Shown in pieces: positions 6,043 through 37,556 of a stretch of 42,777 bases of DNA. The stretch spans positions 1 through 42,777 of the forward strand of contig JAFQLO010000008.1 in the NCBI GenBank assembly GCA_017414525.1, given 5' to 3'. The stretch's first letter is position 1, and each line of letters opens with the position of its first letter. This DNA comes from Clostridia bacterium (GTDB lineage: Bacteria; Bacillota; Clostridia; Christensenellales; Borkfalkiaceae). Position numbers and translations under genes: made by a program. Under the pieces are notes generated by a model. It did not search any database, was not told where the DNA came from, and saw only the letters and a list, made by a program, of their open reading frames with translations.

Positions 6043-6053
6043 GGAGAAAAATT

Positions 6054-9685: not shown

Positions 9686-9760
9686 TTTTTTGTGACATAG
9701 CCTAATAAAAAATGCTCGTTTGCTTAGAAAAATATTATAAAAAACACTTATTGGTAAAAG

Positions 9761-9790: not shown

Positions 9791-9803
9791 GTGCTGTTTA
9801 AGA

Positions 9804-10727: not shown

Positions 10728-10814
10728 CAGCACTATGATACCAGTTTGTGGAAAAAATTCAAGATGAAAATCGAAAGTGGTTTAAATAGCACAAAAATAA
10801 GTTAAAATAGACAA

Positions 10815-10843
10815 TTGAAATGACTGTATAAAAACTGTAAAAT
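10815..10843 (+). promoter_or_regulatory. Candidate sigma-A promoter for the ABC / giant-protein operon
   Basis: TTGAAA-17 nt-TAAAAT. This would give a leader of about 320 nt before the binding-protein start at 11164. Confidence 0.4.
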
Positions 10844-10867
10844 ATCTATGCTATAAGTGTCACTGTG

Positions 10868-10906
10868 GGGAAAATCTTCAATTTTCGAAAACGAGATTTT
10901 CGGCGG
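10868..10906 (+). promoter_or_regulatory. Nested palindrome in the operon leader / AraC divergent region
   Basis: GAAAATCT (10870-77) pairs with AGATTTTC (10894-901) around an inner TTTTCGAAAA palindrome. The flanking words GGGGAAAAT and TTTTCGGCGG resemble those of the 9546-9685 element. Confidence 0.35.
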
Positions 10907-10964
10907 TGGCGACGGATAAGCCATATATATGTAATATATATGTTCAAAGTTTAAAGGGGATTTT

Positions 10965-10985
10965 AAAGTCCAAATTTTGGACTTT
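10965..10985 (+). promoter_or_regulatory. Perfect 10-1-10 palindrome (candidate operator or leader hairpin)
   Basis: AAAGTCCAAA-T-TTTGGACTTT read directly from the sequence, followed by TTATAA. An AT-only palindrome, CATATATA-tgtaa-TATATATG, lies 23 bp upstream (10922-10942). Confidence 0.4.
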
Positions 10986-11163
10986 TATAAAGACCTCAGA
11001 CAAATGATTAAATCGCGAAATCTTCAGCGCGTTTAATATCGAGGTGCTATTAAAGCAGTTGTTTCAAAAGAGACTAAGATACGCCTACTTGTTATTTTTG
11101 ACCAAACTGCTCAAAATAAAACCTCAAAATAATAAAAAAATATTTTTAAGGAGTAACAAGAAA

Positions 11164-12972
11164 ATGAAGAAAAGACTTATTGCTATTGTTATGATGGTAG
11201 TGATGACAGTTGCATCAGCGTTTGCCTTTACTGGTTGTAAAGCCGAAGACAAGACTGATAGCAGCAACACCGTTTTGAACGTGCTTACTTTTAAAGCAGG
11301 TTACGGAACGACTTACTTAGACGCTATTAAACAAGCTTTCGAAGAAACGTTTAAGGCAGAAGGATATAAGATTAATATCTTGACGCCTAAGACCGACCTT
11401 CACGGTTCAATCGTTATTCAGGAAATCTATTCCGGAAGCACCGTTGACGTTTATATCCCTGGTAATATGAATGCCGAAGCAGCGGTTGCAGGTCAGTATA
11501 GCGATAAAGGCGATATTATTAGAGACGTAACCAATTCTGTTTTTAATAAGCCTGCAATTAAACTTGACGGAACGGAAGAGAGCCAAACTATCAAAGAAAA
11601 ACTTTCTTTCTTCTCTGAAGTTTCTGATAAGGTTATAAGTTATGACGGCAAATATTATGGAATTCCTATGACTATCGACGGTGCTGGTCTTGCTATTAAC
11701 CTCAACGTTTTAGAGGATGCAGGATATACTGAAGATGAAATCCCCGTAACTACTAACGAACTTTACGCTATCGCTGACAATATGATGGCAAACATCTCTC
11801 TCGGCGAAGCACCCTTTATCTTCTCTGCACAAGGTAACGGTTACTGCGCAGGCGTTGAACACACTTGGCTTGCTCAGTACGAAGGAATGGGCGGATATAA
11901 CGAGATTTTAGGTTTTGAAGACGCTGACGGCAATCGTTTGGATTGCGTTGTTCCTAACTGCGACGGCTCTAACTGTAACGGTCACGCTTATGACGTGTTT
12001 GAGAAAAACGGTCTTTTAGAAGTTATGGCTGCTTGCTTTGAAATGTACGATCCCTCAAAGCAGACTGTTGGTGGACCTCAAAAAGACTTTAAGGGTGTTC
12101 AGGCTGACTTCGTTCTCGGCAAAGCAGCATTCTACGGCGTATCTGCTTGGATGTACAACGAAGAATATCAAACCTATAACGAAGAAATTAAGGACGTAAC
12201 TTGGGTGCGTATCCCCGTTATCTCTGCATTAGGACCTAAGCTTGACCTCTGTAAGGCAGGTCACGTTGAAAAAACCGGCGAATGTTTCGCTACTTGCGAC
12301 GCTTGTGACGCACTTCTTTCTAAAATAGTTAAATTGACCGACGCTGGAAAGACTGCTGAAGAAATTCAAACGGAAGTTCCCGCAGCTAATATGGACGATA
12401 TCGAAAGAATTATGGAAAGCAGATACCTTGTTAAAGGTTCTGCTGGCGGAATGAGTGCTTGGATTAACGCAACCGTATCTGAAGAAAAGCAAGTTCTCGG
12501 TGAAAAGTTCTTGAGATTTATTGCAAGTGACGAAGTTGCATCTCTTATCTCTAAGCATACCAACACCGTTAACCCCTGCAACAGAAACGCTATCAGCGAC
12601 TCTAACCAGAAATGGTTGCAGAATTCATTCTCAATTTTTAACGACGAAAAAACTATTTTCTTTGAGTCTGGTGTAAGAGGATACAGACAGAAGATGGGTG
12701 TCGTTAACCTCGTTCCCCTTTACGGTAACGTTATGAGTTACGATTTCTATAACAAGCAAATTACTGCTTACGATAGAGGACAGGGCTACAAGAAGGTTGC
12801 TGACAGATCACTCTATACTGAGGCAGCAAAACTTGCTATGTACGGCGGAAAACTTACCCTTCCCGTTAGAGATAACGGCAAACTCGTAGAAGTAGACTTC
12901 GATATGGGTGCTTATAATCACGCTAAAAAGAACATTGAAACTGGCGGTTGGAAGATTCCCGAAAAAAAATAA
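11164..12972 (+). CDS. Large ABC-transporter extracellular solute-binding lipoprotein (CUT1 / LplA-like)
   Basis: The start was set to ATG 11164, after AAGGAG. Signal peptide with lipobox AFTG-C. At 602 aa the size and layout fit the oversized family-1 sugar-binding proteins that pair with LplB/LplC-type permeases. It carries two Cys-rich inserts. Confidence 0.75.
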   Translation: MKKRLIAIVMMVVMTVASAFAFTGCKAEDKTDSSNTVLNVLTFKAGYGTTYLDAIKQAFEETFKAEGYKINILTPKTDLHGSIVIQEIYSGSTVDVYIPGNMNAEAAVAGQYSDKGDIIRDVTNSVFNKPAIKLDGTEESQTIKEKLSFFSEVSDKVISYDGKYYGIPMTIDGAGLAINLNVLEDAGYTEDEIPVTTNELYAIADNMMANISLGEAPFIFSAQGNGYCAGVEHTWLAQYEGMGGYNEILGFEDADGNRLDCVVPNCDGSNCNGHAYDVFEKNGLLEVMAACFEMYDPSKQTVGGPQKDFKGVQADFVLGKAAFYGVSAWMYNEEYQTYNEEIKDVTWVRIPVISALGPKLDLCKAGHVEKTGECFATCDACDALLSKIVKLTDAGKTAEEIQTEVPAANMDDIERIMESRYLVKGSAGGMSAWINATVSEEKQVLGEKFLRFIASDEVASLISKHTNTVNPCNRNAISDSNQKWLQNSFSIFNDEKTIFFESGVRGYRQKMGVVNLVPLYGNVMSYDFYNKQITAYDRGQGYKKVADRSLYTEAAKLAMYGGKLTLPVRDNGKLVEVDFDMGAYNHAKKNIETGGWKIPEKK

Positions 12973-12990
12973 TTACTAACGAAAACCTTA

Positions 12991-13009
12991 CCGCCCGAAT
13001 TTCGGGCGG
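12991..13009 (+). other. Intercistronic GC-rich stem-loop after the binding-protein gene
   Basis: CCGCCCGAA-t-TTCGGGCGG with no U-tract. Hairpins like this typically raise the abundance of binding-protein mRNA relative to the permease genes. Confidence 0.5.
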
Positions 13010-13036
13010 TTGGGGATAAAAAATAAAGGTGAGAAA

Positions 13037-14056
13037 ATGGCAGATTTATCTAAACTTCAAGAAATTACTAGAAAAAGAAAGTGGTATGAGATAGGACATT
13101 ATTCTGCTGATGAGAAAAGATATTTCCCCGTAGTATATTTGCTCCTAATCATTCCAGTTCTTCATCTTATCGTATTTTATTTTTACGTTAACTTTTCGTC
13201 TTTTGCGCTCGCTTTCACCGATAGGTACGGCGACTTTACTTTGGGAAACTTCGAGGCTTTCTTAACAACCTTTTTCTCGGGTGGAGTTGACTCGCAAGGC
13301 GGTGGTAACCCTTCGTTATCTTTAAGAAACAGTTTGATTATTTACTGGATCGGATTTATTGTAGGTAACTCGGTCGGTTTGATAACCACTTATATGCTCA
13401 CTATGCATATCGCGGGAAGTAAATTCTTCCGTGTTTGCTTGCACGTTCCGGGTCTTATAGGCGGCGTCGTTTCCGTTTCAATTAACCAAGGTCTTTTGGC
13501 ATACGACGGACCTATTACTCAAGTAATATTTGCATTGTTCGGAAAAGATAACTTTAACTTTGCCGTTCAAGACGGAGGTTTGCTAGCGCACGAATCGACG
13601 GCGTTTTTAACACTTCTTATATGGAATCAGTGGGGCGCAATCGGTGGTGGCGGAATGGTTCTAGCCGGTGCGTTTAAGAGAATTCCACAAGAAGTATTTG
13701 AGGCTGCTAGCCTTGACGGCTGTGGATTCCTTCGTGAAACTTTCCAAATTGCAGTTCCCTGTGCTTGGCCTACCATTTCAACGAGTTTGATTTTCGGTTT
13801 CTGCGGAATGTTTACGGCTGACCTTAACTTCTATCTATATTCCGGAGGGCAGAACGCTCACGGAATGACGAGTATGGGTTCGTATCTATATAGGTATCAA
13901 GCACTTATTGCAGGTGCGATAGACGCGGGCGGTAACTACGATTGGTTGTACGGCTACGTTTCTGCGGCTGGTATGATTATAACCGCGATAACCGTTCCCT
14001 GTGCGTTCTTGGGAAGATACGTTCTTTCTAAGTTCATTGAAGACGTAAGCTTTTAA
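13037..14056 (+). CDS. ABC sugar transporter permease (MalF/LplB-like)
   Basis: The start was set to ATG 13037. Six or more hydrophobic helices and an EAA loop (EAASLDGCGFLRETFQIAVPCAWP). Confidence 0.85.
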   Translation: MADLSKLQEITRKRKWYEIGHYSADEKRYFPVVYLLLIIPVLHLIVFYFYVNFSSFALAFTDRYGDFTLGNFEAFLTTFFSGGVDSQGGGNPSLSLRNSLIIYWIGFIVGNSVGLITTYMLTMHIAGSKFFRVCLHVPGLIGGVVSVSINQGLLAYDGPITQVIFALFGKDNFNFAVQDGGLLAHESTAFLTLLIWNQWGAIGGGGMVLAGAFKRIPQEVFEAASLDGCGFLRETFQIAVPCAWPTISTSLIFGFCGMFTADLNFYLYSGGQNAHGMTSMGSYLYRYQALIAGAIDAGGNYDWLYGYVSAAGMIITAITVPCAFLGRYVLSKFIEDVSF

Positions 14057-14068
14057 GGAGGTGCTGAG

Positions 14069-14989
14069 ATGGCAGAAGTTGTTATTAGAAAACATAGTAG
14101 AATCAGATCGGCGCTTGCTAAGTGGAAGGCTAAACCCCTCTACGTTAAGGCTATATTGATCTTCTTCTTTATATTCTTTTGTTGTGAAACGTTCACTAGT
14201 TTATTCCCGTTTGCTTGGGTTATAAACAACTCGGTTAAATCGCCCGACCAGTTCGCTAAATTCGGCGCGTCGGCACTAGTTACCGATATTCATCTTGAAA
14301 ACTTTTTAAGAGTTTTCGATCCCGTTGACGGATTCGTTTCTAACGACGTTAGTTACTTCGGAATGCTCTCTAACTCTATTTGGATAACCTTCGTTTACTT
14401 AATCGTTAACATCGGTTCTAGTAGTTTGCTTGCATTCTGTTTGGCAAAATACCGTTTCCCCGGTCATAACCTCCTTTACGGACTTATGATTTTCGTTCAA
14501 ACCATTCCGATTATCGGTACTGGTGCAGCGGCGTATAAACTACTTACCGCTTTGGGCTTTATTAATAACCCCGCACTTATTTGGATGATTTGGTGTTCTG
14601 GTTTTGACTATTCGGCGTTCATTATGTACGGATATTTTAAGGGTATTTCTACCTCATATATGGAGTCTGCGAGAATCGACGGAGCAAACGAGTTCCAGAT
14701 AATTGGCAAGATAATTCTTCCTCTTGCATTCCCTTGTATGCTTGCTCTTATGATCACTAACTTCGTTGGACAGTGGAATAACTATTCAGTAGTTCAAATT
14801 AATCTCCGCGATTTCCCCAACCTTGCTTACGGTTTGTTCACTTATTCTAAGGACATTCTTCACAGCAATAACGATAAGGGAATGTATTACGCGGCACTTA
14901 TTATCACCGCGCTTCCCGGAATTATTTTGTACTCTTGTTTCCAGAAACTTATCCTTGCCAACCTCACCGTTGGTGGACTTAAAGGCTAA
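14069..14989 (+). CDS. ABC sugar transporter permease (MalG/LplC-like)
   Basis: GGAGG lies 8 nt upstream of the ATG. EAA loop ESARIDGANEFQIIGKIILPLAFP. Polytopic membrane protein. Confidence 0.85.
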   Translation: MAEVVIRKHSRIRSALAKWKAKPLYVKAILIFFFIFFCCETFTSLFPFAWVINNSVKSPDQFAKFGASALVTDIHLENFLRVFDPVDGFVSNDVSYFGMLSNSIWITFVYLIVNIGSSSLLAFCLAKYRFPGHNLLYGLMIFVQTIPIIGTGAAAYKLLTALGFINNPALIWMIWCSGFDYSAFIMYGYFKGISTSYMESARIDGANEFQIIGKIILPLAFPCMLALMITNFVGQWNNYSVVQINLRDFPNLAYGLFTYSKDILHSNNDKGMYYAALIITALPGIILYSCFQKLILANLTVGGLKG

Positions 14990-15052: not shown

Positions 15053-18000
15053 ATGAAAAAAACTAGAAAGATTTTAATTTTCGTTCTCTCCGTTATGTTT
15101 GCAATAAGCGCGTTTAGTTTCGTCGCTTGTGCACAGAAAAAAGAGGAAATGAAAATTACTACCGTTCCTCCCATCGTTCAACATTGTGTGGGGGAAAGTA
15201 TTAACCTTTACGACTATATAATCAGAGAGGCTGGTGCTACTTATACCTTCTCCGTTTCTTATAACGGTGGGGAAGCGAAAGCTCTTAATGCTAACGGTTA
15301 TTATCTCGCTGAAACTGGCGATTATACTTTTACCGTTAACGGCTCTTCCGCTACGAAAGAGGGTAGTGCAACGTTCTCACTCTCAGTCGTAGAAGTTGCA
15401 CCTACTATTTGGTATAAGACTGCTGAAATTCCTGCTTACTGGCTTGAATATACCATATTATATAAGTTGTTAGACGAAGCTGGTCCTTACACTATGCCTG
15501 TTGGCGGTGTTACCACCGAGCTTACGCACGTTTTCGTTTATCCCGCAGAGGACGATACCATAGGTTATAAAGTTGACCTTACCGGTACTCAGTCTTACGT
15601 TGAGAAGTTCAATAAAGAAACTCCCGACGATTTAACCAAGATTGAACTTACCGACGATAACATTGACGAACTTGGTTTCTACGTTAACAGAAAGAAACGT
15701 GTTGACGACACTTCTCCTATTAAGGCGGATGACGGAAAATACTACGGCGTTAAAGATATGCAGGGTATTTTTATGTACCTCATAGAAGGTCAATACGAAT
15801 TCCATTACAGATCTTATAACACTGGTGGTGAACAAAAGGCTAAGTTCTACGTTAAGTGTACTGAAAAACTTTTCGAACTCACCGAACTCGAAGGGGCACT
15901 CCAGTTCGATAGAGATACCGAAGTGGCTAGTTGGGCTCCCATTGAGGGCGCAGTTCAATATAAGGTTAAACTCCTTAATAAGAACTTCTTTACTACTGAC
16001 ACTTTCTTCGATTGTTCACAGTTAATCACTAATCCTATTATGGATTATACCATAGTCGTTCTTCCTATCGGTGAAAATCCCGAAAAGGCAAACGATTATC
16101 TCAACAACTGCAAGATGACCTATGAAACTCCTTACATAGGTAGTGAAGGCGCTGTTCAGAACGCTGATAAGTCTATCACCATTAAGGGTAACAACCCCGT
16201 TGGCGGTGACCTTTACGGACATATGGCTGCTGTTGAAAACGAATACTACGCTCTCCGTGGTAACTACGGAATCGGTAACTACATTGACGTTAAGTTTAAG
16301 GGCAACAATATGCCTACTATCGTTCTATTTGCCGACGCTATTAACAAGTCTGTTACTTGGCACGGTGGTAGAGGTATCGTAGTTATGAACGGTCTCGTTT
16401 CTTATACTGAAGGTGGCGATCTCGTTAAAAGTTACTTGGATAGAACGTATGTTTTCGGACCTAACAGAGTAAACACTCACTTTACTCATAAGCCACTTGC
16501 AGCTCTTTCGGGTAATAACACCAACCTTACCCAAAATTATTTAAAGAGCAACTCAAACACCACGTTTACTTATACCGTTGGTACTCGTATTGACTCGAGC
16601 GAGATGATTCTTCTCTCGTCAACGCTTAAAAACGCTGATACTGGCGAGGTTATTTCTACTCAAGAATATCCGCTCCACTATCAATACGATGCGTCTAAGT
16701 CAATCAAAGACATAAGTCCTACCAGATATTTGACTACTGACGACGTTAACCCTGGTAGCTTCATTCTTTTCGGCGCGTATAAAGAGAACGGTGAAGACAC
16801 TACTATCCTTTCAGTAAGCGATCCTTATTACGTTGATCCTCGTTCAACCGTGGAAAACGAAGACGGTTCGTTCACCGTAACTTCTTCTAGAGTAGTAGGT
16901 ACTGATTGGAACGCTCTTAAAACTTCTAACAGTAAGTTTGGTTACGTTCTCCAAGAAGGCAAGTTCGGTGTAAACACTTACGCTGAATACGTTTTCAAGG
17001 GCAACAATATGCCTCAAATTCTTCTCTTCGCTGATAAGATTGACGGCAACTTCACGGGTAATGGTGGCGGTAAGGGTATCCTTATCTCTAACGGTATGGT
17101 AAGTTATACCGTTGATAAGGACGGAAATTACGTTGCTACTAACGACACTGCTAGTCTTAAGATTTACGGACCTAACAGAATCGCTGGTAAGCCCGCATTC
17201 GTTAAAGAGGACAGTGCGTTCTCACAAGATAATTTAAGCAAATCTTCTTCTGCCGAATACAGAATGGTTGTAGGTACGAAGGTTGTTTATGAAGACGTTA
17301 ACACTTACACTCCCGTTAAGAAGTCTTACATCGGTAAAGACGGATTTATGGAAGAAGTAGTTTACGTCGTTCTCGAACTCTATAACAACAAGACTGGACG
17401 TTTAATCGAAAAGATTGAAACTCCCGTTCAGTCAAATGAAAACAATTACGATAAACTCGCTAGAAATAAGTTCGTTACCACTCAGGATATAACTGCTGGT
17501 AGCATCGTTGCATTCGCTGGTATTAAGGGCGTTGACGCAACTGGTAAGGCTCTTACCACTACTTTCTTCTGCTCAAAAGCACCTGAAACGATTGCGCCTT
17601 CTACCTCTGGTCACGTTCACGACTTTACTAACTACAACAACGACGGAACTTATCACTGGTTCGAATGTACTTGTGGTGCTAAATGCACGAAGGGTACTTG
17701 CGTAGGCGGAACTGCAACTTGTAGCGAACTCGCAGTTTGTGACGTTTGTGGCAAGGGTCACGGCGAATTGCTCCCACACGTAGGTGGAACTGCAACTTGT
17801 ACTGAAAAGGCAGTTTGTACCGCTTGTGGTCAGTCTTACGGATACTTCGGTCACGTATTTAACGCTGAAACGGCTAACGTTCAGTCTAACGACGATTACC
17901 ACTGGTTCACTTGTGATAAGTGTGGCGTTGTAACCGAGCAGATGGTTCACGTTGGTGGCGAAGCAACTTACGAAGACAGGGCAGAGTGTGAAATTTGTGG

Positions 18001-21000
18001 CAAACCTCACGGCGATTACAAAGCACCTGAAAGTTCTGATGAAGTTACTCTCGTTAACGTAACTAATACTCAAGGCAACCTCTTTAAGGATAAGAGAACG
18101 CTTACTGCTCAAAGCGGTAGTATTACCTTTGATAACGCGCTTGACGATCCTATCTATACTGGTCAGACCGCTGCTATCGTTCTTAACGAACAGTTCACCG
18201 ATCAGTTCATAAAAGTAAGCTTTACTGCACTTGATACGGTTAACGAAACTGCAACTAACTTCCAAGATGCAATCGGTTTCTCAATCGGCTTTAGAAGACA
18301 GACCAGCGACGTGTCAGTTGCTATTAACGATTGGACGATTTCTCCTTGGGCTAACACTAACTACTTCTATATTACCAACACCGCGTCTTACCTCAAAGCG
18401 TTCTCTAACGCAACGGGCGCAAAACACGAAATAGAGAATAAATCGTTCAGATCAATCGTTATCGGCGAAAGATATTCGTTGGTATTCGGTATCACCGAAG
18501 AACAGAACGGTGACGACGTGTTCCACTTGATGTGGCTCGACGAAAACGATAACGTTCTCGCTTATCGTGTCGCAAGACAAGATTACTTTGATTCTAAGTG
18601 GGCGGGCGTTAAGACGTTAGAAGACAGCGGTTACTTCACGATTAACGCGTTTGCCGCTGAAAGAATTACTCTCGATTACGAGATTATCTCTGAAGAAGAT
18701 TCTCACACCGTTCTCGGAATTCACACCTTTGACATTTACGAGAAGATTGACGAAGTTTACCACTCAATCGAATGTAAGTGTGGCGAGGCTGGAAACAACC
18801 AAGTTCATAGTGGTGGAGAAGCAACCGAAACTTCAAGAGCTGTTTGTGATTTCTGTGGCGAAGAATACGGCACGGTTAAACAGCCTATCGCTGAAGACGT
18901 TATCGTAACTGGAACTATTAACGAAACGGCTAACGAATTTGACGGAAAAACTGAACTTACTACTGAAAGCGGTAGTTTGACTTTCAGTTCTAAAGTTGAT
19001 GGACTTAACTGGCAAAAGACTTCCAACATAAACCTCTGCAAGGAATACTCTTCTGAGTTCATTAAGATCGGCTTTACTGCTCTTTGCGACGGTCAAGGTG
19101 AACCGCTTGAAGGTGGCAAGATTAACTACAAGGTAGCAGACGCTATGGGCTTCGTAGTTGGCTTTAAGAAGGCTAAAGTTGAAGAGTCTGGAAACCTCGT
19201 TCTTTCTGATTGGCTGCTCAAGTTTAATAACGACGCAAACATCGGTTATCTCTATAACAAACCTGCTAACTCTTTTGCTCTCGCAGCGTTTGCTACGAAG
19301 TTGAATACTAGTGGAAGCTTCATCGATATGGTTAAAGGAGAACAGTACTACTTAACCGTCGGCGTTGTTGGTCAGGGTGATAACAGCACTATTTACTTGA
19401 TGCTTTTAGATAGCGACAATCAGATTATGGCTGGTTATAGCGCAACTATGGCACAGTTCAAGGCGCTTAGACCTGACGCAGAGATGCCTGATAAAGGTTA
19501 CTTTGCAATCGGTAGCTACGCAACTGAAGAAACGACCTTAACTTACGAAATCCTTTCTCCTGCAGAAAGATGTGAACTCTTAGGAATTCACGAATTTAAC
19601 ACTTACGAATACCTCGATAAGCGCGTTCACAAAGTTTCTTGTAGCGTTTGCGGTACGGAAACGGATAACGCAGCACATGTAGGCGGCGAAGCAACCTTAA
19701 CCGAAAAGGCTGTTTGCGACTTGTGTGGCGAAGAATATGGTAACTTCAAACAACCTATTGCTGAAGACGTTGCAATCTTCAATATGGTTGACGAATACGT
19801 TGAGGAATTCGACGGGGGAAGAGAACTTACCACCGAAAGCGGTAAAGTTACCTTCACCGGCACTACTGGCACTAACAGAGACGCTGCAACCATCGTTCTT
19901 AAAAAGCAATATGCAAATCAATTCATAAAAGTTGGATTTACTGCACTTTGCGATGGTTCAAGTACGGCTTGCCCTGCAATCTCTTGGGGACTTGACGTAG
20001 GCGTTAGAGGCGTTGAAACTACTAGCGCACTTACCAACTGGACCATGGTTGGGTGGACCAACACTAACTATTTCTACTTCTGTAAAGACGGTGCAAACCG
20101 CAGCCACTTCGGTGGAATCGGTACTAGAACCGGTAGCACAGACTTTAGAAGTGTTAAGGAAGGACAACAGTACTATATCGTTGCGGGTATGACTGGTACT
20201 GGTGAAAACGCAGTATTCCACTGGATGTGGCTTGACGCAAACGATAACGTACTTAGAACTAGCACGATTACCGCTGCTGAAATGGCAGCAAAACACCCCG
20301 CAGGTGTGATTGAAGATACTGGATACTTCACTATTCACAGTTCTGCTACCGTTGAAAGAACTATTACTTACGAAGTTCTCTCTGACGTGGAAAGATGCGA
20401 ACTCTTCGGCGTTCACGTCTTTGGTGAATACACTTTGGTTGACAAGGAAAATCACCAAGCAACCTGTAAAGACTGCGGTGAAAAATTTGGCGATCTTATC
20501 GCTCACGAAGGTGGCACTGCTGATTGTGATACCAAAGCAATCTGTGAAGTTTGTGGCGAAGAATACGGTGAATTCGAACATAAGTTAGATGGCGAAGATT
20601 CAATTCAGAGCAATGCTGATTACCACTGGTTCACTTGTGGGCTCTGCGGAGAACCGTCAGAACAAATCAAGCACTTTGGTGGCGAGGCAACTTACGAAGA
20701 ACAAGCAAAATGTGAAGTTTGCGGTCAGCCTCACGGCGAATATAAACTCTTCGAGGGTAGTGAAGACGTTGAGCTTCTAAATGTAACTAATCTTAAACTC
20801 GACCTCTTTGACGGTAAGAGAACTCCGAACTTAGAAAGCGGTAAGATTACCGTTAACGCAACCACTCCTAGTGAACTTAACTGGCAGAACACCGCAGTAG
20901 TTGGATTAAAGAAACAGTATACCGATGAATTCATTAAGATCGGATTTACCGCACTTTCTGGCGATGGCTCGAAAGTTAACCTCTACGACGCGATGGGCTT

Positions 21001-22300
21001 TGCAGTAGGCTTTAGAAGAACTGCTCTTGCGGCTAACCCCGTTCTTTCAGACTGGATGTTTAAGCCAAATAACGACACTAACTACGGCTACTTCTATAAC
21101 AGAGCGGCTAATGCATTTGCTTACGGACACGGTGGCGTTGCGATGGGTGCTATGGCTAACCTTAAACTCGTTAAGGGTCAGCAGTACTATTTCGTACTCG
21201 GCGTAACTGGAACTGCTCCTGAAGCAGGCGTAGAAGATACTAGAGTAATGTACGCAATGTGGCTTGACGCTAACAACGCTTTAATTGGCGGTTTCAACGT
21301 TCCGATGAAGAAGTTCTTAACCGTTAGACCTAGTGGTTCAATGAGTGATAGTGGTTATTACACCATTCACGCTTACATTGACGGAGTAACCCTTTCTTAT
21401 GAAGTACTTTCCGCAAAAGAAAGATGTGAACTTTTAGGAATTCACGACTATGCAACTTACGCTTTCGTTGACGACACCTATCACGCACTTTCTTGTGACT
21501 GTGGCGCAAACAAGGGCAACGAAACGCATCAAGGCGGAGAAGCAACCTTTACCGAAAAGGCAGTTTGCGATTTCTGCAAACAGCCTTACGGAACGGTAAA
21601 ACAAGCGATTGCGGACGACGTTACGCTCATCAATATGACCAACGTTACCGCTATCCCCGCAGCAGGTAAAGAAGTTATCGATACCCAAGAAGGTACGATT
21701 AAGTTCACTTCAACGCTTGCAAGTAGCGGTTGGGGTAGCGAAAATGCAACCGTAGTATTACAGAAACAATATACTAGCGAATTCATCAAAGTGGGCTTTA
21801 CCGCCCGCTCTGGTGATGGCACCGCTCTTAACGGCTATTCAGCAATGGGCTTTGGCGTTGGTTTTAGAAAGGCAGCAGTTAACTCAATAGCAACCAGTAC
21901 TGACTGGTGTGTAGTTGGTTCTGACTCAGGTACTTACTGCGTATTCTACGGCAATAAAGCGGCTAACGCATTCCACGATGGACATGGACCTACACGTCAC
22001 GGCACAAAAACCAACTTGAAGTTTGTTGAAGGTCAGAAGTATTACTTCGTAGTAGGCGTTGCAGGAACTGTTGATGGAACTACTGATAACAGAACTATGT
22101 ACGCCATTTGGCTTGATGCAAACGATAACTTGATTGCAGGATTCTCCGTACCAATGACTAAGTTCGTTTCTGTAAGAGCAGATGCAACGATGCCAGAGAG
22201 CGGATACTTCTCAATTAACGCTTTTGCAGTTAATGAAGAAATGACACTTTCCTATGAAATAATCGATGCGGCAACAGCACTCGGTTACGTAGGCAAATAA
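15053..22300 (+). CDS. Giant (2415 aa) modular surface lipoprotein of unknown family
   Basis: AGGAGG lies 6 nt upstream of the ATG. Signal peptide with lipobox SFVA-C. Single uninterrupted ORF. Internal modules: an Ig/FN3-like N-terminal region, 2 A modules, a Cys/His knuckle block and 5 B modules. No LPXTG, SLH, dockerin or catalytic motif was recognised. Confidence 0.9.
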   Translation: MKKTRKILIFVLSVMFAISAFSFVACAQKKEEMKITTVPPIVQHCVGESINLYDYIIREAGATYTFSVSYNGGEAKALNANGYYLAETGDYTFTVNGSSATKEGSATFSLSVVEVAPTIWYKTAEIPAYWLEYTILYKLLDEAGPYTMPVGGVTTELTHVFVYPAEDDTIGYKVDLTGTQSYVEKFNKETPDDLTKIELTDDNIDELGFYVNRKKRVDDTSPIKADDGKYYGVKDMQGIFMYLIEGQYEFHYRSYNTGGEQKAKFYVKCTEKLFELTELEGALQFDRDTEVASWAPIEGAVQYKVKLLNKNFFTTDTFFDCSQLITNPIMDYTIVVLPIGENPEKANDYLNNCKMTYETPYIGSEGAVQNADKSITIKGNNPVGGDLYGHMAAVENEYYALRGNYGIGNYIDVKFKGNNMPTIVLFADAINKSVTWHGGRGIVVMNGLVSYTEGGDLVKSYLDRTYVFGPNRVNTHFTHKPLAALSGNNTNLTQNYLKSNSNTTFTYTVGTRIDSSEMILLSSTLKNADTGEVISTQEYPLHYQYDASKSIKDISPTRYLTTDDVNPGSFILFGAYKENGEDTTILSVSDPYYVDPRSTVENEDGSFTVTSSRVVGTDWNALKTSNSKFGYVLQEGKFGVNTYAEYVFKGNNMPQILLFADKIDGNFTGNGGGKGILISNGMVSYTVDKDGNYVATNDTASLKIYGPNRIAGKPAFVKEDSAFSQDNLSKSSSAEYRMVVGTKVVYEDVNTYTPVKKSYIGKDGFMEEVVYVVLELYNNKTGRLIEKIETPVQSNENNYDKLARNKFVTTQDITAGSIVAFAGIKGVDATGKALTTTFFCSKAPETIAPSTSGHVHDFTNYNNDGTYHWFECTCGAKCTKGTCVGGTATCSELAVCDVCGKGHGELLPHVGGTATCTEKAVCTACGQSYGYFGHVFNAETANVQSNDDYHWFTCDKCGVVTEQMVHVGGEATYEDRAECEICGKPHGDYKAPESSDEVTLVNVTNTQGNLFKDKRTLTAQSGSITFDNALDDPIYTGQTAAIVLNEQFTDQFIKVSFTALDTVNETATNFQDAIGFSIGFRRQTSDVSVAINDWTISPWANTNYFYITNTASYLKAFSNATGAKHEIENKSFRSIVIGERYSLVFGITEEQNGDDVFHLMWLDENDNVLAYRVARQDYFDSKWAGVKTLEDSGYFTINAFAAERITLDYEIISEEDSHTVLGIHTFDIYEKIDEVYHSIECKCGEAGNNQVHSGGEATETSRAVCDFCGEEYGTVKQPIAEDVIVTGTINETANEFDGKTELTTESGSLTFSSKVDGLNWQKTSNINLCKEYSSEFIKIGFTALCDGQGEPLEGGKINYKVADAMGFVVGFKKAKVEESGNLVLSDWLLKFNNDANIGYLYNKPANSFALAAFATKLNTSGSFIDMVKGEQYYLTVGVVGQGDNSTIYLMLLDSDNQIMAGYSATMAQFKALRPDAEMPDKGYFAIGSYATEETTLTYEILSPAERCELLGIHEFNTYEYLDKRVHKVSCSVCGTETDNAAHVGGEATLTEKAVCDLCGEEYGNFKQPIAEDVAIFNMVDEYVEEFDGGRELTTESGKVTFTGTTGTNRDAATIVLKKQYANQFIKVGFTALCDGSSTACPAISWGLDVGVRGVETTSALTNWTMVGWTNTNYFYFCKDGANRSHFGGIGTRTGSTDFRSVKEGQQYYIVAGMTGTGENAVFHWMWLDANDNVLRTSTITAAEMAAKHPAGVIEDTGYFTIHSSATVERTITYEVLSDVERCELFGVHVFGEYTLVDKENHQATCKDCGEKFGDLIAHEGGTADCDTKAICEVCGEEYGEFEHKLDGEDSIQSNADYHWFTCGLCGEPSEQIKHFGGEATYEEQAKCEVCGQPHGEYKLFEGSEDVELLNVTNLKLDLFDGKRTPNLESGKITVNATTPSELNWQNTAVVGLKKQYTDEFIKIGFTALSGDGSKVNLYDAMGFAVGFRRTALAANPVLSDWMFKPNNDTNYGYFYNRAANAFAYGHGGVAMGAMANLKLVKGQQYYFVLGVTGTAPEAGVEDTRVMYAMWLDANNALIGGFNVPMKKFLTVRPSGSMSDSGYYTIHAYIDGVTLSYEVLSAKERCELLGIHDYATYAFVDDTYHALSCDCGANKGNETHQGGEATFTEKAVCDFCKQPYGTVKQAIADDVTLINMTNVTAIPAAGKEVIDTQEGTIKFTSTLASSGWGSENATVVLQKQYTSEFIKVGFTARSGDGTALNGYSAMGFGVGFRKAAVNSIATSTDWCVVGSDSGTYCVFYGNKAANAFHDGHGPTRHGTKTNLKFVEGQKYYFVVGVAGTVDGTTDNRTMYAIWLDANDNLIAGFSVPMTKFVSVRADATMPESGYFSINAFAVNEEMTLSYEIIDAATALGYVGK
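16140..17590 (+). repeat. Two tandem A modules (about 233 aa each) inside the giant ORF
   Basis: The motif KGNNMP(T/Q)I(V/L)LFAD recurs at nt 16301 and 17000, a 699-nt period. Both copies share GG(R/K)GI...NG(L/M)VSYT, (V/I)(F/Y)GPNR and the tail GS(F/I)(I/V)(L/A)F(G/A). A third copy is in the 1401-aa protein at nt 25264 (TGNNMPNVILYAD). Confidence 0.8.
17609..18030 (+). repeat. Block of His/Cys knuckle repeats (zinc-ribbon-like or disulfide knots)
   Basis: The block contains HWFECTCG...GGTATCSELAVCDVCGKGHG, HVGGTATCTEKAVCTACGQSYG and HWFTCDKCG...HVGGEATYEDRAECEICGKPHG. The same unit recurs as a linker after each of B modules 1-4 and once in the 1401-aa protein. Confidence 0.8.
18040..22297 (+). 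repeat. Five tandem B modules with knuckle linkers (period about 852-864 nt; 1007 nt where the linker is doubled)
   Basis: The motif (Q/E)FIK(V/I)(S/G)FTA(L/R) recurs at nt 18206, 19058, 19922, 20929 and 21782. Each module also carries G(E/Q)(R/Q/K)Y(Y/S)..(V/F/A)G(I/V/M)(T/V/A), (M/I)(W/L)LD(E/S/A)(N/D)(D/N)N, (S/K/T)GY(F/Y)(T/A/S)I and a (L/I)(T/S/D)YE(I/V)(I/L) tail. Linkers begin ERCEL(L/F)G(I/V)H. Confidence 0.85.
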
Positions 22301-22319: not shown

Positions 22320-23918
22320 ATGAAAAAACGTTTTACAAAAATATTAACATTAGCGATGTCTTCAATAATGGCGGTTGGCACACTCTTCGGATGTGCCACC
22401 GAGCAAACGGGAAGAATAGTTAGTGCAACTCTTCCCGAGGGATATTTCTTCCCAGAATATACCATTGAGCAGTCGGGCAAAACTTACGAAACGTTTGCTT
22501 ACGGCGCGTCAAGAAACCCGTATTTAACGTTTGACGGTGAACAAAGAGAGTTCGTTGATACTACTTCTGTTGAGTATATGCAAACTTATAAGGACGCAGG
22601 ATTCACCGTTTACTTCTCGACATTCTCGGAAAGTGCTGATATAATGAGCGTTCTTGATAACGCAGAAAAGGTTGGCTTGAAAGTTCTAGTAACTGACTTC
22701 TGGATTCTTGATGCGGTAGGCACTGACGGAAAACTCGTTGACGAGAACAACGACGGAACTAAGAGCAGAGATTATAGAACGAAAGAAGAATTGCAAGAAG
22801 CCGTTAGAGTGCAGATTGAAGAGTGGTGTTCACACCCTGCATTCTTTGGACTTAACATGCGTGACGAGCCGATAATTGACTTCCATGAAGACTACGGCGA
22901 CTTGTATAAAGCAATTCGTGCGATTGAACCCACGCTCAAAAAAGCAGACGGAACGTTCTATAAACCTGGTGAACTTTATCTCCACGTTAATATGTTGCCT
23001 CTCGGCATCAACGTTGGAACGAGTTACTATAAGGAATACGAAACACTTGGCGAAGCGTATGATAAATACGTAAGAAATATGTTCGAAGTTTCTGGCGCTG
23101 ACAGACTTTCAGTGGATATTTACGAATTCAGAAGAGACGGCGTGTTCCCTGGCTTCTTCCCGACCATGCAGATGTTCGCAAACGCTTGTAGGGACTATAA
23201 AGCAGGATTCACTTACGTTCAGCAATCGTTCAACACTTTCTCTGGAACAACCGAATCTTACGGCAGAGTAACGAGAGCGGAAATGATGAGTGAAACTTAC
23301 ACTGCAATCGGCTTAGGTGCAACCCACCTTTCGTACTATACTTACACACCGTATGCAGAACAATCAGTAGCAGGTACGCACACCATTCACCACTTCTTGG
23401 ATTTTGAGGGCAAACCCACCAACGTTTATTACTACGGTCAGGCTGCAATGAAAGAAGCAAGATTCTTGGCTGATTACGTGTTTAACTTTGATTATCAAGG
23501 TTGTAACTTCGTAACCAACCCCGATCCCGACTCAATGACGTTTGGTATCGGTGCATATCTCACTAGCCGTGGTGATAGCGTAACTGGTACTAGTGCTCAG
23601 TTTGACAGAACTTACGAGTTCGAAAAGATTAAGAACGAGGACATCGTTATCGATAACGATATACTTTTGGTCAGCGAACTCAAAGATTCAAAGAACGATT
23701 TGTATATGTACATGTTCCAGAACGTATTGAACCCCTCTGACGAGAAGATCGGTAGGGTAGACGTAAACGTAAGCGTTGACTTCGGAACGGAATACGACTG
23801 GGTAGCAGAAATCGGTGGCGGAATGGTTAACTACGTTAAACTTGATAAAGGCGTATACACCGCATCACTCGGTGCAGGCTATGCAAACTTCGTAGTACCC
23901 CTAGCAAAAGCAAACTAA
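22320..23918 (+). CDS. Surface lipoprotein, uncharacterised enzyme-like family (paralogue of 28628..30013 and 30034..31410)
   Basis: Signal peptide with lipobox LFG-C. It shares ordered motifs with the two downstream paralogues: AGF(T/N)V, FFGLNMRDEP vs FYG(I/V)QLYDEP, LHVNMLPLGIN vs LQCNLLPYCGID, VDIYEFRRD vs (V/F)DEYFFR(R/K)D, QQSF vs (L/I)QSF, and LSYYTYT vs (I/A)(G/A)FFTYMT. The alternating beta-alpha style pattern suggests a TIM-barrel hydrolase, but this is unproven. Confidence 0.6.
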   Translation: MKKRFTKILTLAMSSIMAVGTLFGCATEQTGRIVSATLPEGYFFPEYTIEQSGKTYETFAYGASRNPYLTFDGEQREFVDTTSVEYMQTYKDAGFTVYFSTFSESADIMSVLDNAEKVGLKVLVTDFWILDAVGTDGKLVDENNDGTKSRDYRTKEELQEAVRVQIEEWCSHPAFFGLNMRDEPIIDFHEDYGDLYKAIRAIEPTLKKADGTFYKPGELYLHVNMLPLGINVGTSYYKEYETLGEAYDKYVRNMFEVSGADRLSVDIYEFRRDGVFPGFFPTMQMFANACRDYKAGFTYVQQSFNTFSGTTESYGRVTRAEMMSETYTAIGLGATHLSYYTYTPYAEQSVAGTHTIHHFLDFEGKPTNVYYYGQAAMKEARFLADYVFNFDYQGCNFVTNPDPDSMTFGIGAYLTSRGDSVTGTSAQFDRTYEFEKIKNEDIVIDNDILLVSELKDSKNDLYMYMFQNVLNPSDEKIGRVDVNVSVDFGTEYDWVAEIGGGMVNYVKLDKGVYTASLGAGYANFVVPLAKAN

Positions 23919-24215: not shown

Positions 24216-24231
24216 GGAGGTGGCAGAGAGT

Positions 24232-27200
24232 ATGAATAAGACTATTAAAACAAAATTGATTTCACTTTTTGCTGTTCTTCTTTCAATATGTATGCTTTTC
24301 AGTGTGGCTAGCATGGTAACGACAACGGCAAAAGCAGAAGGCACGACCACCGCAGCAACTTTGGTTGAAGGTGCAGCTGTTAGAGTTAATAGTGCTGAAT
24401 CTTCAGGTTTGAAGTTTAAGGCTTCAATCGATAAGGCTCAGTACAACGCTCTTTATAACCAAGCTGGTGGCAAACTTAAAGCAGGTATGATCATCGTTCC
24501 GACTGATTATATCACCGCTGCAAACGGTTACACGTTTAACGCATTTGCTGCTGCTGGCAAAACGGTAGCATCAAACACCATCGCAGAGTTTAAGAATGCA
24601 AGCGAAAGCACTTACGAGTTCACGATGAGTATTATTAATCTCAAACTCGCTAACTACGACAGAGATTTTGAAGCAATCGTTTACTTGGAGAGTGAAGTTG
24701 CTCTTGACGGTTTCGTTGCTTACGGCGACAAGTATTATGCTTACGCTGAAAGAAATGAATCTTACGCAAGAAACATTTATGAAGTTGCTAAAGGCGTTTA
24801 TAACGACAGAGCAGACGCTCAAGACGACGTTAAGTACATCTATCCTGTTGACGGCAAGTACGCAACTTTGGATACTGACGGCTTAGCAATCGCTAAAACC
24901 TTTATCGACGGCGTAACTGAAATTGTTCTTGATAACGGTAAACCCGCTGCATATTCAAGTGAATACTACGCAGCAAAGGACAGCGTTTTAACTAACGACA
25001 CTGAGGCTTATCTCTTGGGCGAACACAAAAACGTTGTTTATAAGGGCGAAAGCATTTCTTCTTATCCCTTCACCGCTGACGGTATAGCTATTAAACAGAT
25101 GTATACCGCTAGAGCAACCTATGCTAACGGTGAGTATACTACCGCTGGTTATGCAATTGGTGCTCTTCTTTGGTCAGCGGGTAATGCTGGTAATGGAACT
25201 TATGGCTACGTAGCATTTGACGGAGAATATGGTCCTAGCACTTACGTTGAATTTACTTTCACTGGTAATAATATGCCTAACGTTATTCTCTATGCAGATG
25301 ACGTAACTGATGGTAATATGACTCACAATTCAGGTGGTAAGGGTATTGCCATGATCAACGGTATATCTTATGACGGTACAGCTTCTACTGGTAGAACTAC
25401 TGACTTAGAAGTTTGGGCACCATATAGATGGAATGGACACTACGTAGGATACAATTCATATAGATATTACGGTGATTCAAAAGTTCCTATGATGAAATAT
25501 TTTATCAACAATCCTACGACTGAATTCAGATACGTTGTTGGTACTTATATCGTTAAGGAAGACGTTCATAACGCTTCTGGCGTTGTTTATGGCGCGGAAG
25601 AGGAGAAGGACGGCGTATTAGAAGAAGTTATCTATCTTGATATGGCTATTTATAATAATAGCACTGGAGCGTCTTTATATACTCTTAAAACTCCCCTTTG
25701 GGCTAAAAACACCACCTCTTCTACTGCAACAACAGATCGTGTAACTACAGAAGATTTGTCAAGTGGCGCAATTATGGCGTTCTCAGCTTTGAAGGGTGCT
25801 GATGCGACTACTGGTGACGTTCTTAACACCACCTTTAAGGTAACCAAAGCTCCTTATCACGTTCATAATTTCAATTCTGAAATTAAGAGCGATGCAACTC
25901 ACCACTGGTATGAATGTGCTTGTGGCGAAGTTGGCGAAAAGGCTGAACACTTGGGCGGAACTGCAACTCACACCGAAAAGGCAAAATGTGAAGTTTGTGG
26001 AACTGCTTACGGCGACCTCAAACCCGCTTGGGAAGTAGACGACGTAGCACTCGTTCAAATGACTAACCAGTCTGCTGCACAGGTTATCACTGCTGATAAA
26101 GGTACTATTACCTTTACTGGTTCACAAGAAACTCCTTCACAGACTAACGCATCTTCTATCGTTCTTAAGAAACAGTATACTACTGAATTCGTTAGGGTAG
26201 GATTCACTGCACTTGCAGATTATGTAAGAGAAGGCACTGTAACCAACTTGAACTCCGTTCTCGGACTCAACGTTGAATATAGAACTTCAAGCGAAACTAG
26301 TAAGAGTGGTGTTGACAGTTGGGGCTTTGATATTATGAATACCACCAACTACTTCCGTTTGTATCCTGTTCATAGCGGACACTACGGTGGATATGCTTCA
26401 GATAGAACAGTTGCTAAGGCATTCGTTGCTGGCGAACAGTATTACTTAATTGCTGGTATCGATAGCAATAACACCTTATATTTCTATATTCTTGATGAAG
26501 ACAACACCGTTATGGCTAAGTCTACTATGGACGAAGCAGCGTTAATTGCAGCTGGAACTCATGCAACTAATAAAACTCTTGATTATTCAATGCCTGAATC
26601 AGGTTACTGGACTATCAACAGCTGGGCAACCTCAGAGAGAACCCTTTCTTGGGAAACCATTTCTGAAACTCAAGCAATGTACTACATTAACGGCGGAAAG
26701 GGTGTTGAAGGTCTTGCTGTTAGCGGCAACACCGCAAGCTGGACTGCTTATAACGGCGCAACCTCTTATAAGGTAAAAGTTGATAACGGCGAATGGACTG
26801 ACGTTGGTAACGTAACCTCTTACGCTATTGCTAACCTCGCCGCATTTGACACTTATAGCGTAACTGTTAAGGCTGTATGCTCAGGCTTTGAAACTAAAGA
26901 AACCGCAACTCAATTTACTTACGTTCCTAGTGGAATTACCCTTGCTAACGTTGATAGTATTAAGGCTGATGGAAACGCAACTGCAACTAGTGGAAAGGTA
27001 ACTGTAACGGCTGATACTGCATCTGCAATCGGTTTTGCTGCAGACGCTACCGACTTTATTAAAGTTAAATTTGCCGCAACTGGCGCTGCTGTTGAAGCAA
27101 TGTCAATAAACTTCCGTCAAGCAAGCGTTGCTGCAAACTGGCAGAGTGGTTGGGGTATAGTACCTAACGGAACGCACGGAATGATGCTTAATTACGGCGG

Positions 27201-28594: not shown

Positions 28595-28627
28595 ATTGAT
28601 AATGATATTATTGTGAGGACTTTGGTT

Positions 28628-35950: not shown

Positions 35951-35979
35951 TTGACAAAACTTGCGCTTTTTGTTATACT
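35951..35979 (+). promoter_or_regulatory. Candidate sigma-A promoter of the DUF1538 operon
   Basis: TTGACA-17 nt-TATACT. The ORF-track start at 35951 is actually this -35 box. Confidence 0.6.
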
Positions 35980-36007
35980 AAATCAAATGCTAAAAGGAGG
36001 TAACGAG

Positions 36008-37546: not shown

Positions 37547-37556
37547 GGAGGAGAGT

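Follow-up and report, generated by a model that had tools for sequence, protein, structure and literature searches.

Exclusion of cysteine from exported proteins has been described for Firmicutes (PMC2823432). A giant, apparently exported protein of a Clostridia bacterium (Borkfalkiaceae) contains 51 Cys. The protein is encoded in a stretch of 42,777 nucleotides (GenBank assembly GCA_017414525.1, contig JAFQLO010000008.1, positions 1 to 42,777 of the forward strand), which we refer to as the window, by an open reading frame (ORF) of 2415 amino acids (aa) at 15053..22300 on the + strand. A Sec/lipoprotein-type signal ending in FVAC26 is followed by an A block (aa 27-852), a first linker and five B modules with units rich in His and Cys between them, and 38 of the 51 Cys are concentrated within 424 linker residues. 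The linker under study, 17609-18030, corresponds to aa 853-993 of this ORF. We consider it probable, at about 0.68, that the linkers are built from metal-stapled units which share zinc sites across their junctions and serve as stiff spacers between lectin-like modules.

The linkers consist of a recurrent His/Cys unit

The original prediction described a bipartite His/Cys unit and counted eight knuckles and seven half-units in the giant ORF and one unit in a 1401-aa protein encoded downstream. A regular-expression search returned the same numbers. Eight knuckles of the form GGxA[TD]x5-7CxxC start at aa 885, 911, 968, 1254, 1544, 1820, 1876 and 2161, and seven half-units of the form Hx3Cx1-2CG start at H868, H950, H1237, H1526, H1801, H1858 and H2144, all on the + strand. 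The 1401-aa ORF (24220..28425) contains one knuckle and one half-unit at aa 562-594. The placement had also been described correctly. Three knuckles and two half-units separate the A block from B1; thereafter B1, B2 and B4 are each succeeded by a single full unit and B3 by two. In 2000 residue shuffles of the giant protein we obtained 0.0015 knuckle and 0.003 half-unit matches per shuffle, and a profile built from eight units matched the giant protein with E 9e-161.

When the eight full units were aligned (alignment A1), 12 columns were invariant, namely H3, H16, C20, C23, G24, G34, G35, A37, A43, C45, C48 and G53. The bipartite and recurrent character of the proposed pattern is retained, with two corrections: the first and second His are separated by 11-15 residues and not by 3-8, and the knuckle at aa 2172-2176 ends in CxxCK instead of CxxCG. 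A conserved ligand-like residue that the original prediction had overlooked is found six positions before the first His, at the end of those B modules that precede a unit (C1507, C1782, C2125 and H1218).

The units lie in a translated frame. Compared with an orthologue of 88% identity (L001), the + frame carries 19, 10 and 64 differences at codon positions 1, 2 and 3, respectively. Two such 88%-identical orthologues (P0006 and P0007) have the same gene order, and all proposed ligand residues, H1218 included, are identical in both. An antisense ORF at 17573..18265 (- strand, 230 aa) was rejected as a gene: its frame is interrupted by a stop codon in the 88%-identical orthologue, it is only 69% conserved, and its substitutions follow the third positions of the + frame.

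The unit is predicted to fold into an all-beta mini-domain

We modelled the double unit at aa 1785-1898 using AlphaFold2 with an input alignment of 44 tandem pairs from other proteins. The model was all-beta with a mean predicted local distance difference test score (pLDDT) of 90.8 and no residue below 50, which argues against a disordered linker, the alternative that had been raised together with the original prediction. DSSP assigned strands to 6-11, 16-21 and 27-33 in the first half of the unit and only short bridges to the knuckle half. If the strands form an up-and-down meander, then, in the numbering used from here on (H3 to C47 over the canonical unit of about 55 residues), H3, C20 and C22 would sit together at one end of the sheet, opposite H16 and H31. 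Foldseek comparison of the double-unit model returned nothing at E<=0.001 from the PDB, where the best TM-score was 0.22, and nothing at E<=0.001 from BFVD. The His/Cys linkers are thus real and, as far as the prediction goes, confidently folded mini-domains of about 55 residues.

Conserved His and Cys covary across unit junctions

We aligned 513 full units from 152 proteins, leaving out the window protein and its two close orthologues. H3 was conserved in 0.99 of the units, H16 in 1.00, C20 and C22 in 0.97 each, and C44 and C47 in 1.00 each. Position 31 was His in 0.88 and Cys in 0.11. Further conserved positions were W17 (0.84), G33 (0.96), G34 (0.95), A36 (0.91), T37 (0.85), A42 (0.88), Y51 (0.94) and G52 (0.98), and surface positions other than the ligands and the GG/YG turns were poorly conserved. 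When the eight ligand positions are read as a string, 71% of the units show HHCC-HCCC and 8% HHCC-CCCC. The canonical unit therefore has five Cys and three invariant His, and this odd number of Cys, together with the invariant His and the His/Cys swap at position 31, points to metal ligands and not to disulfides.

The Cys of the 'ATC' motif (C38) had been regarded as variable and probably not a ligand. The family speaks against this. C38 is conserved in 0.86 of the 513 units; it is the family norm, and the window proteins are the exception. Its presence follows what comes next in the chain. Among knuckles that possess C38, 837 have a His 9-14 residues after C47 and 6 do not, and among knuckles that lack it the corresponding numbers are 62 and 38 (odds ratio 85, nominal p 3e-34). 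The 44 knuckles without the following His come from 28 proteins, and what follows them is either sequence outside the repeat or a spacer of unusual length. Moreover, of 35 units that come after a knuckle lacking C38, 24 begin with HxH, compared with only 7 of 431 units after a knuckle that has C38 (nominal p 1e-25). This exclusion suggests that C38 and the extra His of the next unit alternate in one role beside the next H3. We found no compensating change elsewhere within C38-less units; for example, His at position 51 is not enriched.

A cruder rule, according to which C38 would be present only if another full unit follows, was not significant in the family (odds ratio 1.5, p 0.07). Within an array, subdomains of several types occur side by side, and all of them begin with His.

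Within the window, C38 is retained in the three knuckles that precede another unit (C890, C916 and C1825) and lost in the six terminal ones, where Y973, E1259, L1549, Y1881, F2166 and H584 take its position. The positions of H16, H31, C44 and C47 are constant across the window units, position 31 being occupied by C883 in the first of them.

Position 31 could be assigned in a similar manner. In knuckles preceded by neither a meander nor another knuckle it is always His or Cys (251 of 251), and this invariance in isolated knuckles indicates that it belongs with C44 and C47 of its own knuckle. Likewise, 298 family knuckles with no meander half upstream keep C44, C47 and His31 in the absence of a CxC partner, as does the knuckle at aa 909-930 of the giant protein.

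The residues preceding a unit were also informative where the neighbour is not another unit. Counting the window and its relatives, B-like modules that precede a unit end in ERC-ELLG[IV]-H in four cases and in DSH-TVLGI-H in one case, and in two cases they end in GIHTH or GVHVH, i.e. with HxH and without the Cys. None of the 10 B-like modules that do not precede a unit has Cys/His at -6 or HxH.

The closest described relative is a putative zinc-binding domain of an IgA protease

A search of PDB sequences with the unit profile gave a single significant match, chain 9qa6_A, which is the IgA protease IgAse of Thomasclavelia ramosa (UniProt Q9AES2; E 1.6e-5, 28 bits). The match indicates weak homology and spans chain residues 1074-1129, corresponding to ZBD2, and a second, weaker stretch at 906-959 corresponds to ZBD1. 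ZBD1 and ZBD2 were described as 'putative zinc-binding domains' from AlphaFold3 models only. Their subdomains are modelled as three-stranded antiparallel sheets with 2His+2Cys sites and one 3Cys+1His site located at subdomain interfaces. Disulfides were seen nowhere in the protein, dithiothreitol (DTT) improved its monodispersity, and subdomain I was noted to distantly resemble the TFIIS zinc domain (all PMC12237041).

The resemblance concerns one half of our unit. The meander half aligns residue for residue with IgAse, IHDYGTEWKSNADNHWHECNCGDKKDEAAH against H-x-[FY]-x11-H-W-x-x-C-x-C-G-x7-H, and corresponds to IgAse subdomain II. Both systems consist of three-stranded beta subdomains of about 30-40 residues with putative His2Cys2 and His1Cys3 ligand sets, and both belong to an extracellular protein of a gut Firmicute. 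The GG-knuckle half has no counterpart in IgAse, whose second subdomain is a longer hairpin, SFKWVVDKEATATKKGSKHEECKICG, without the H-x-G-G-x-A-T-C...A-x-C-x-x-C-G-x-x-Y-G knuckle of the window units. The architecture differs as well: IgAse carries two to three subdomains at the C-terminus of a protease, whereas in the window they are inter-module spacers capped by Cys/His of a lectin-like module. The ligand count of the canonical unit, three His and five Cys, fits sites of the IgAse type (2His+2Cys and 3Cys+1His), with covariation pairing C38 with the His of the next unit.

Other known systems are more distant. Zinc ribbons and rubredoxin knuckles share with our units a CxC and a CxxC about 22 residues apart on beta hairpins. 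Matches in this direction remained below threshold: the FmdB/CxxC_CxxC_SSSS model TIGR02605 scored E 0.051 and 13.7 bits (cut-off 31.3), rubredoxin E about 1, and the Pfam zinc-finger families HNH_5, zf-BED and zf-DBF gave cumulative matches below cut-off. No curated zinc-ribbon model reached its cut-off, and no zinc ribbon was found in the Foldseek search of the PDB at E<=0.001. In a Cys4 ribbon such as TIGR02605 or the C-terminal domain of TFIIS there is no place for three invariant His and a fifth Cys, and classical zinc ribbons are cytoplasmic or associated with nucleic acids, whereas our units are extracellular.

With fn3, Ig-like/Big_2, SpaA-type and cohesin-linker scaffolds and with EGF-like repeats the units have in common that they are small tandem all-beta modules between functional domains; the IgAse paper itself compares the ZBDs with EGF (PMC12237041). 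The units have less than half the size of an fn3 or Ig domain and would be held together by metal staples, where those spacers use a hydrophobic core, isopeptide bonds or disulfides. No relationship in sequence or fold to fn3, Ig, SpaA or EGF spacers was found.

Finally, the variant-specific surface proteins (VSPs, PF03302) of Giardia are extracellular, CxxC-rich proteins of an anaerobic gut organism and are reported to bind zinc. The parallel is no more than an analogy: PF03302 did not match the window proteins, and both motif and organismal domain differ. A precomputed PF03302 match was present on two family fragments.

The unit defines a large family without a curated model

How widespread is the unit? 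Among 1.84 billion representative proteins (clusters at 50% identity), a search with the unit profile that did not depend on a word index retrieved 5,259 proteins at E<=1e-3; the number fell to 2,040 at a threshold of 1e-10 and to 370 at 1e-30. The 150 best-scoring proteins together yielded 1,358 unit copies on re-detection, no single protein having more than 23. Word-indexed protein searches returned only four short fragments for the unit profile and only short unnamed fragments for a double-unit profile; none of the sources consulted had a name for these proteins. The unit had been called unusual for secreted proteins of Gram-positive anaerobes. Given the 5,259 clusters it is in fact widespread, and what is left of that remark is that it is almost undescribed. 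The accompanying comparison with 'ATCTxxG...CxxCG' repeats in surface proteins of gut Firmicutes was right in substance, as the unit belongs to a large family of this kind.

No Pfam-A or NCBIfam model scored above threshold on the linker or on either window protein, and in 47 repeat-carrying proteins the repeat was covered by no curated Pfam-A or NCBIfam model. Canonical units, repeat-only proteins and the IgAse fragment were equally without a curated model and gave only scattered single-member cumulative matches to unrelated zinc-finger models. The possibility that the motif is an already described Pfam repeat was thus answered in the negative, no Pfam or NCBIfam repeat covering the unit. Literature searches for the motif strings and for descriptions of zinc repeats yielded nothing besides the IgAse paper (PMC12237041).

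The carriers have the appearance of surface proteins. A signal-like N-terminus was detected by a crude test in 132 of 152 family proteins. Partner domains among the 47 carriers were BspA-type LRR_5 (8), cohesin (5), Flg_new (3) and SLH (2), and dockerin, choline-binding repeat, trypsin and CBM26 occurred in one carrier each. Annotated carriers identified by tblastn include a 'MucBP domain-containing protein' on the megaplasmid of Lachnospira ([Eubacterium]) eligens and a protein of Vescimonas fastidiosa. The repeat is also encoded on four unannotated human-faecal contigs labelled 'Bacteriophage sp.' (MT835472.1, MT836742.1, MT836789.1 and MT839755.1).

Several carriers harbour sub-types of the repeat. 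P0017 has HWH..TCGH meanders without C20; P0018, P0041 and P0067 have arrays of GGxAT[TE] knuckles with HxH starts; and in P0034 long acidic spacers separate units that have neither C38 nor the adjacent His. These sub-types are natural 'mutants' of the ligand pattern.

Extracellular His/Cys 'zinc-binding' beta subdomains of gut Firmicutes are therefore already known from a single mention, as an unvalidated model in one protease paper. New in the present analysis are the repeat in its GG-knuckle form, the extent of the family, the lack of a curated model and the spacer-like arrangement of the units between lectin-like modules. Added to this is the covariation, which points to ligand sharing across junctions and would rehabilitate the 'ATC' cysteine. 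Many carriers are huge surface proteins of gut Clostridia (BspA-LRR, cohesin/dockerin, SLH and MucBP proteins and a relative of the IgA protease) in which the repeat goes unlabelled by annotation pipelines. With a defined family model, tens of thousands of 'dark' residues could be annotated and an extracellular metal requirement would be flagged.

A model of metal staples shared between neighbouring modules

On the basis of covariation and strand order we assigned sites to each unit, all metal sites being proposed ones. The unit would be a small, autonomously folded module stapled by metal, most likely Zn2+. It would consist of a three-stranded beta-meander (H3...H16-x3-C20-x1-2-C22...H31) followed by a GG-knuckle (G-G-x-A-T-C38-x5-C44-x2-C47-G-x2-Y-G), with two tetrahedral sites that each bridge a junction. 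Site beta, {H16, H31, C44, C47}, would clamp the meander to its own knuckle. Site alpha would combine {H3, C20, C22} with one donor from whatever precedes the unit. Three kinds of donor are proposed: Cys38 ('ATC') of the knuckle before it, an additional His placed two residues upstream (HxH), or a Cys/His from the helix that ends a preceding B module (ERCELLGIH/DSHTVLGIH). A knuckle-only repeat such as aa 909-930 would use {C38 of the previous knuckle, H31, C44, C47}. Counted over the whole chain, the giant protein would have 15 sites, to which 37 of its 51 Cys would contribute, and the 1401-aa protein would have two.

We chose this partition because it leaves the first, internal and last units of an array all with complete sites. 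It also agrees with the predicted strand order and with the location of the IgAse sites at subdomain interfaces. Extracellular zinc appears the most plausible metal, since Sec export leaves a protein unfolded and free of cofactor and the habitat is anoxic and reducing; the organism belongs to a group in which exported disulfides are generally avoided. The zinc would be acquired outside the cell and would take the place of the disulfides used elsewhere. A chain of shared sites would produce stiff rods between modules. In the model of IgAse ZBD1, 129 residues span roughly 110 Å; at this ratio the 424 linker residues would extend over about 36 nm. Such rods would space and project the five concanavalin-A-like glycan-binding modules of a membrane-anchored lipoprotein through and beyond the Gram-positive wall.

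The covariation provides a rule that can be tested: Cys38 of a knuckle would pair with the starting His of the next unit, and HxH or a Cys/His of a helix could substitute for it. The rule would explain the Cys richness of these exported proteins in a phylum that avoids cysteine. More tentatively, and a little short of an even chance, the model may extend to a large class of extracellular 'ligand-sharing' zinc staples in which every site is completed by a residue of the preceding module and arrays polymerise into metal-dependent rigid rods. If true, these staples would be an anaerobic Firmicute counterpart to disulfide-rich spacers such as EGF repeats, and the architecture of surface proteins, and hence glycan capture and adhesion in the gut, would depend on extracellular zinc.

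Weighing the model against alternative readings

Several points speak against the model of shared zinc staples. Metal binding is putative for every member of the family, the IgAse ZBDs included, and the partition into alpha and beta sites derives from covariation and strand order, not from distances. The IgAse match was obtained with the profile of the window units and was absent with a broader double-unit profile of 45 sequences. The experimental coordinates of IgAse cover only S32-N876, so that the ZBDs lie outside, and the authors themselves call them putative; for catalysis the protease could do without ZBD1, BB8 and ZBD2 together, and in vitro these domains even impaired the cleavage of IgA (PMC12237041). 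Stiffness and spacing are extrapolations. The sequences behind the covariation counts are related to one another, with 28 and 23 proteins in the rare classes, and the p-values overstate the independence of the observations. Lastly, six of the nine window knuckles lack C38, and four of these have a non-ligand residue in its place (Y, L, Y and F).

The simplest reading of HHCC-HCCC also counts against sharing. It assigns self-contained sites, {H3,H16,C20,C22} and {H31,C38,C44,C47}, to each unit, and the linkers would then be beads on a flexible string with no ligands shared between units. These two sets match the '2His+2Cys' and '3Cys+1His' compositions of IgAse ZBD2, and size-exclusion chromatography with small-angle X-ray scattering (SEC-SAXS) indicated flexible linkers between ZBD1, BB8 and ZBD2 (PMC12237041). 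Self-contained sites nevertheless leave unexplained why C38 is lost exactly where no unit starting with His comes next, why HxH follows a knuckle without C38, and why B modules carry a Cys/His at -6 only before a unit. In addition, they would leave six of the nine window knuckles with three ligands, although these knuckles are perfectly conserved in the orthologues; the same loss of C38 is harmless under the alpha/beta partition. We regard self-contained sites as unlikely.

A linker stabilised by disulfides without any metal, similar to an EGF-like or knottin-like module, is far less probable still. Extracellular Cys-rich repeats are usually disulfide-bonded in other organisms, and in the window units the Cys count is even, six of them having four. 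Firmicutes, however, tend to keep Cys out of exported proteins (PMC2823432), and no disulfides were seen in IgAse, which is better behaved with reductant (PMC12237041). The gene content of the host is of the anaerobe type and includes an [FeFe]-hydrogenase. Disulfides also fail to account for a canonical unit with five Cys and three invariant His, for the exchange of His (88%) and Cys (11%) at position 31, for the replacement of Cys38 by His (HxH) where disulfide partners would be lost in pairs, and for CxC and CxxC spacings of the knuckle kind.

The least probable alternative is a functional metal site, be it a redox iron or Fe-S centre, a zinc scavenging or storage 'sponge' or an adhesive ligand-binding repeat: 2His+2Cys and 3Cys+1His ligand sets are shared with Rieske-type and mitoNEET-type [2Fe-2S] proteins, some proteins consist almost entirely of these repeats, with up to about 25 copies, and the repeat accompanies adhesin-type domains, but a pre-assembled cluster is unlikely behind a Sec-type signal that lacks the twin-arginine motif (cofactor-loaded proteins need Tat), the spacings differ from Rieske and CDGSH motifs, non-ligand surface positions are poorly conserved as in a scaffold rather than a binding site, and in the giant protein the units occur only at module junctions.

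Two further ways of grouping the ligands were considered. A single Cys4 zinc ribbon, {C20,C22,C44,C47}, is disfavoured: knuckle-only units without CxC keep all their ligands, and the tests with family models and folds failed. A C2H2-like site formed with the next unit, {C44,C47,H3',H16'}, was rejected as it leaves orphan yet invariant ligands in the terminal and first units; the match to the TAX1BP1 UBZ domain that had suggested it has E 0.3 and is at chance level. The original prediction had offered a zinc ribbon or a disulfide knot. Metal, and specifically zinc, remains the best reading of the sequences, and both the Cys4 ribbon and the disulfide knot are disfavoured.

Proposed sites in the individual window units

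The units of the giant protein, all encoded on the + strand, can be described in these terms as follows. Linker 1 (17609..18031, aa 853-993) comprises the full unit U1 (aa 854-904, starting with H854-V-H856), the knuckle-only repeat 1b (aa 909-930) and the full unit U2 (aa 934-987). Here the model would place five sites, {H854,H856,C872,C874}, {H868,C883,C896,C899}, {C890,H909,C922,C925}, {C916,H934,C954,C957} and {H950,H966,C979,C982}. U1 has several peculiarities. An extra Cys, C878 (17684-17686, 'GAKC878TKGTC883'), falls outside the proposed sites, position 31 is Cys (C883) and not His, and position 51 is His (H903) and not Tyr. The first unit of the array may have a variant site.

U3 follows B1 (18704..18871, aa 1218-1273), with H1218 as the proposed cap, H1224, H1237, C1241, C1243, H1252, C1265 and C1268 as proposed ligands and E1259 at position 38. 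U4 follows B2 (19571..19741, aa 1507-1563) and would be capped by C1507, with putative ligands H1513, H1526, C1530, C1533, H1542, C1555 and C1558 and L1549 at position 38. The double unit after B3, U5 and U6 (20396..20737, aa 1782-1895), has C1782 as its candidate cap. In U5 the ligands would be H1788, H1801, C1805, C1808, H1818, C1831 and C1834 together with the retained Cys of its 'ADC' motif, C1825; in U6 they would be H1843, H1858, C1862, C1865, H1874, C1887 and C1890, and position 38 is Y1881. U7 after B4 (21425..21592, aa 2125-2180) has the predicted cap C2125 and predicted ligands H2131, H2144, C2148, C2150, H2159, C2172 and C2175, with F2166 at position 38. The single unit of the 1401-aa ORF (25858..26013, aa 547-598, + strand) sits between the A-like block and the first B-like module. 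It starts with H547-V-H549, its further ligands would be H562, C566, C568, H577, C590 and C593, and H584 occupies position 38.

Host proteins and flanking modules

The N-terminus of the giant protein (15053-15130), MKKTRKILIFVLSVMFAISAFSFVAC, is a Sec-type signal that lacks a twin-arginine motif and has a lipobox-like FVAC26 at its end. No LPXTG, SLH or dockerin anchor was found in the protein. Judged from its sequence, the protein is probably a Sec-exported lipoprotein with an N-terminal lipid anchor. The family of the whole giant protein is tiny, with six relatives among 5.8 billion clusters.

The five B modules, B1 at 18014..18703 (aa 988-1217), B2 at 18872-19570, B3 at 19742-20395, B4 at 20738-21424 and B5 at 21593-22297 (+ strand), share 28-46% identity with B2 (alignment A4) and had no Pfam match. 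An AlphaFold2 model of B2 reached a pLDDT of 87.7 and a predicted TM-score (pTM) of 0.89, and Foldseek returned 64 PDB matches at E<=0.001. Legume lectins ranked first (E 2.6e-6, probability 1.0), and DUF1080 'glycosyl hydrolase', CBM66 and SPRY structures were among the others, with modest TM-scores of 0.35-0.47. The B modules are thus predicted lectin beta-sandwiches of the concanavalin-A-like type, and sugar binding is putative. They probably constitute an undescribed family of carbohydrate-binding modules with five copies in the giant protein and three in the 1401-aa protein. According to these models the giant protein would be a string of five lectin-like modules with His/Cys units as connectors.

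The 1401-aa protein (24220..28425, + strand) is a secreted paralogue. Behind its signal peptide come an A-like block, a single His/Cys unit and then three B-like modules that are separated by fn3 domains (fn3 E 9.9e-6). The fn3 domains are located at junctions equivalent to those that bear His/Cys units in the giant protein, which fits a spacer role for the units.

A module of about 200 aa occurs twice in the A block and is characterised by the motif F[KT]GNNMPx[IV][IVL]L[FY]AD followed by GG[RK]GI..NG. The motif marks 16301-16336 and 17000-17035 in the giant protein (aa 417-428 and 650-661) and 25264-25299 in the 1401-aa ORF (aa 349-360), all on the + strand. No Pfam, NCBIfam or PDB sequence match to the A block was obtained. 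The duplicated module could be the catalytic or the primary binding part of these proteins.

The units are encoded in a putative glycan-utilisation locus

Upstream of the giant gene, the window encodes a GH78 alpha-L-rhamnosidase (3799..6042), a GH106-like protein (6030..8585), an AraC regulator (9804..10733, - strand) and a large solute-binding protein with two ABC permeases (11044..14989); an EamA transporter also belongs to this part of the locus (3799-14989). Three ORFs have no Pfam match (22320..23918, 28613..30013 and 30034..31410), and a phosphoglucomutase gene also belongs to the locus. The [FeFe]-hydrogenase is encoded at 1097..2527 on the - strand. The window has a G+C content of 42%, and its layout is of the ABC type rather than of the SusC/D type. 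Together with the hydrogenase, these features would fit a Clostridia-like anaerobe. The gene order of the locus is kept in contig JAZXXT010000028.1 of a metagenome-assembled genome (GCA_052848535.1). From its gene content the locus appears to be of the glycan-utilisation type, and its substrate is probably a rhamnose-containing plant polysaccharide. For this locus, our model would suggest that, beside rhamnosidases and a sugar ABC importer, stiff stalks carry the five lectin-like modules of a lipoprotein about 2,400 residues long.

Further downstream, an ORF encoding a DUF1538 protein (35951..37546) is listed as sharing 80 nt with the start of the following ORF (37467..38237), whose C-terminus is P-II-like. 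The TTG assigned as the start of the latter ORF probably lies too far upstream.

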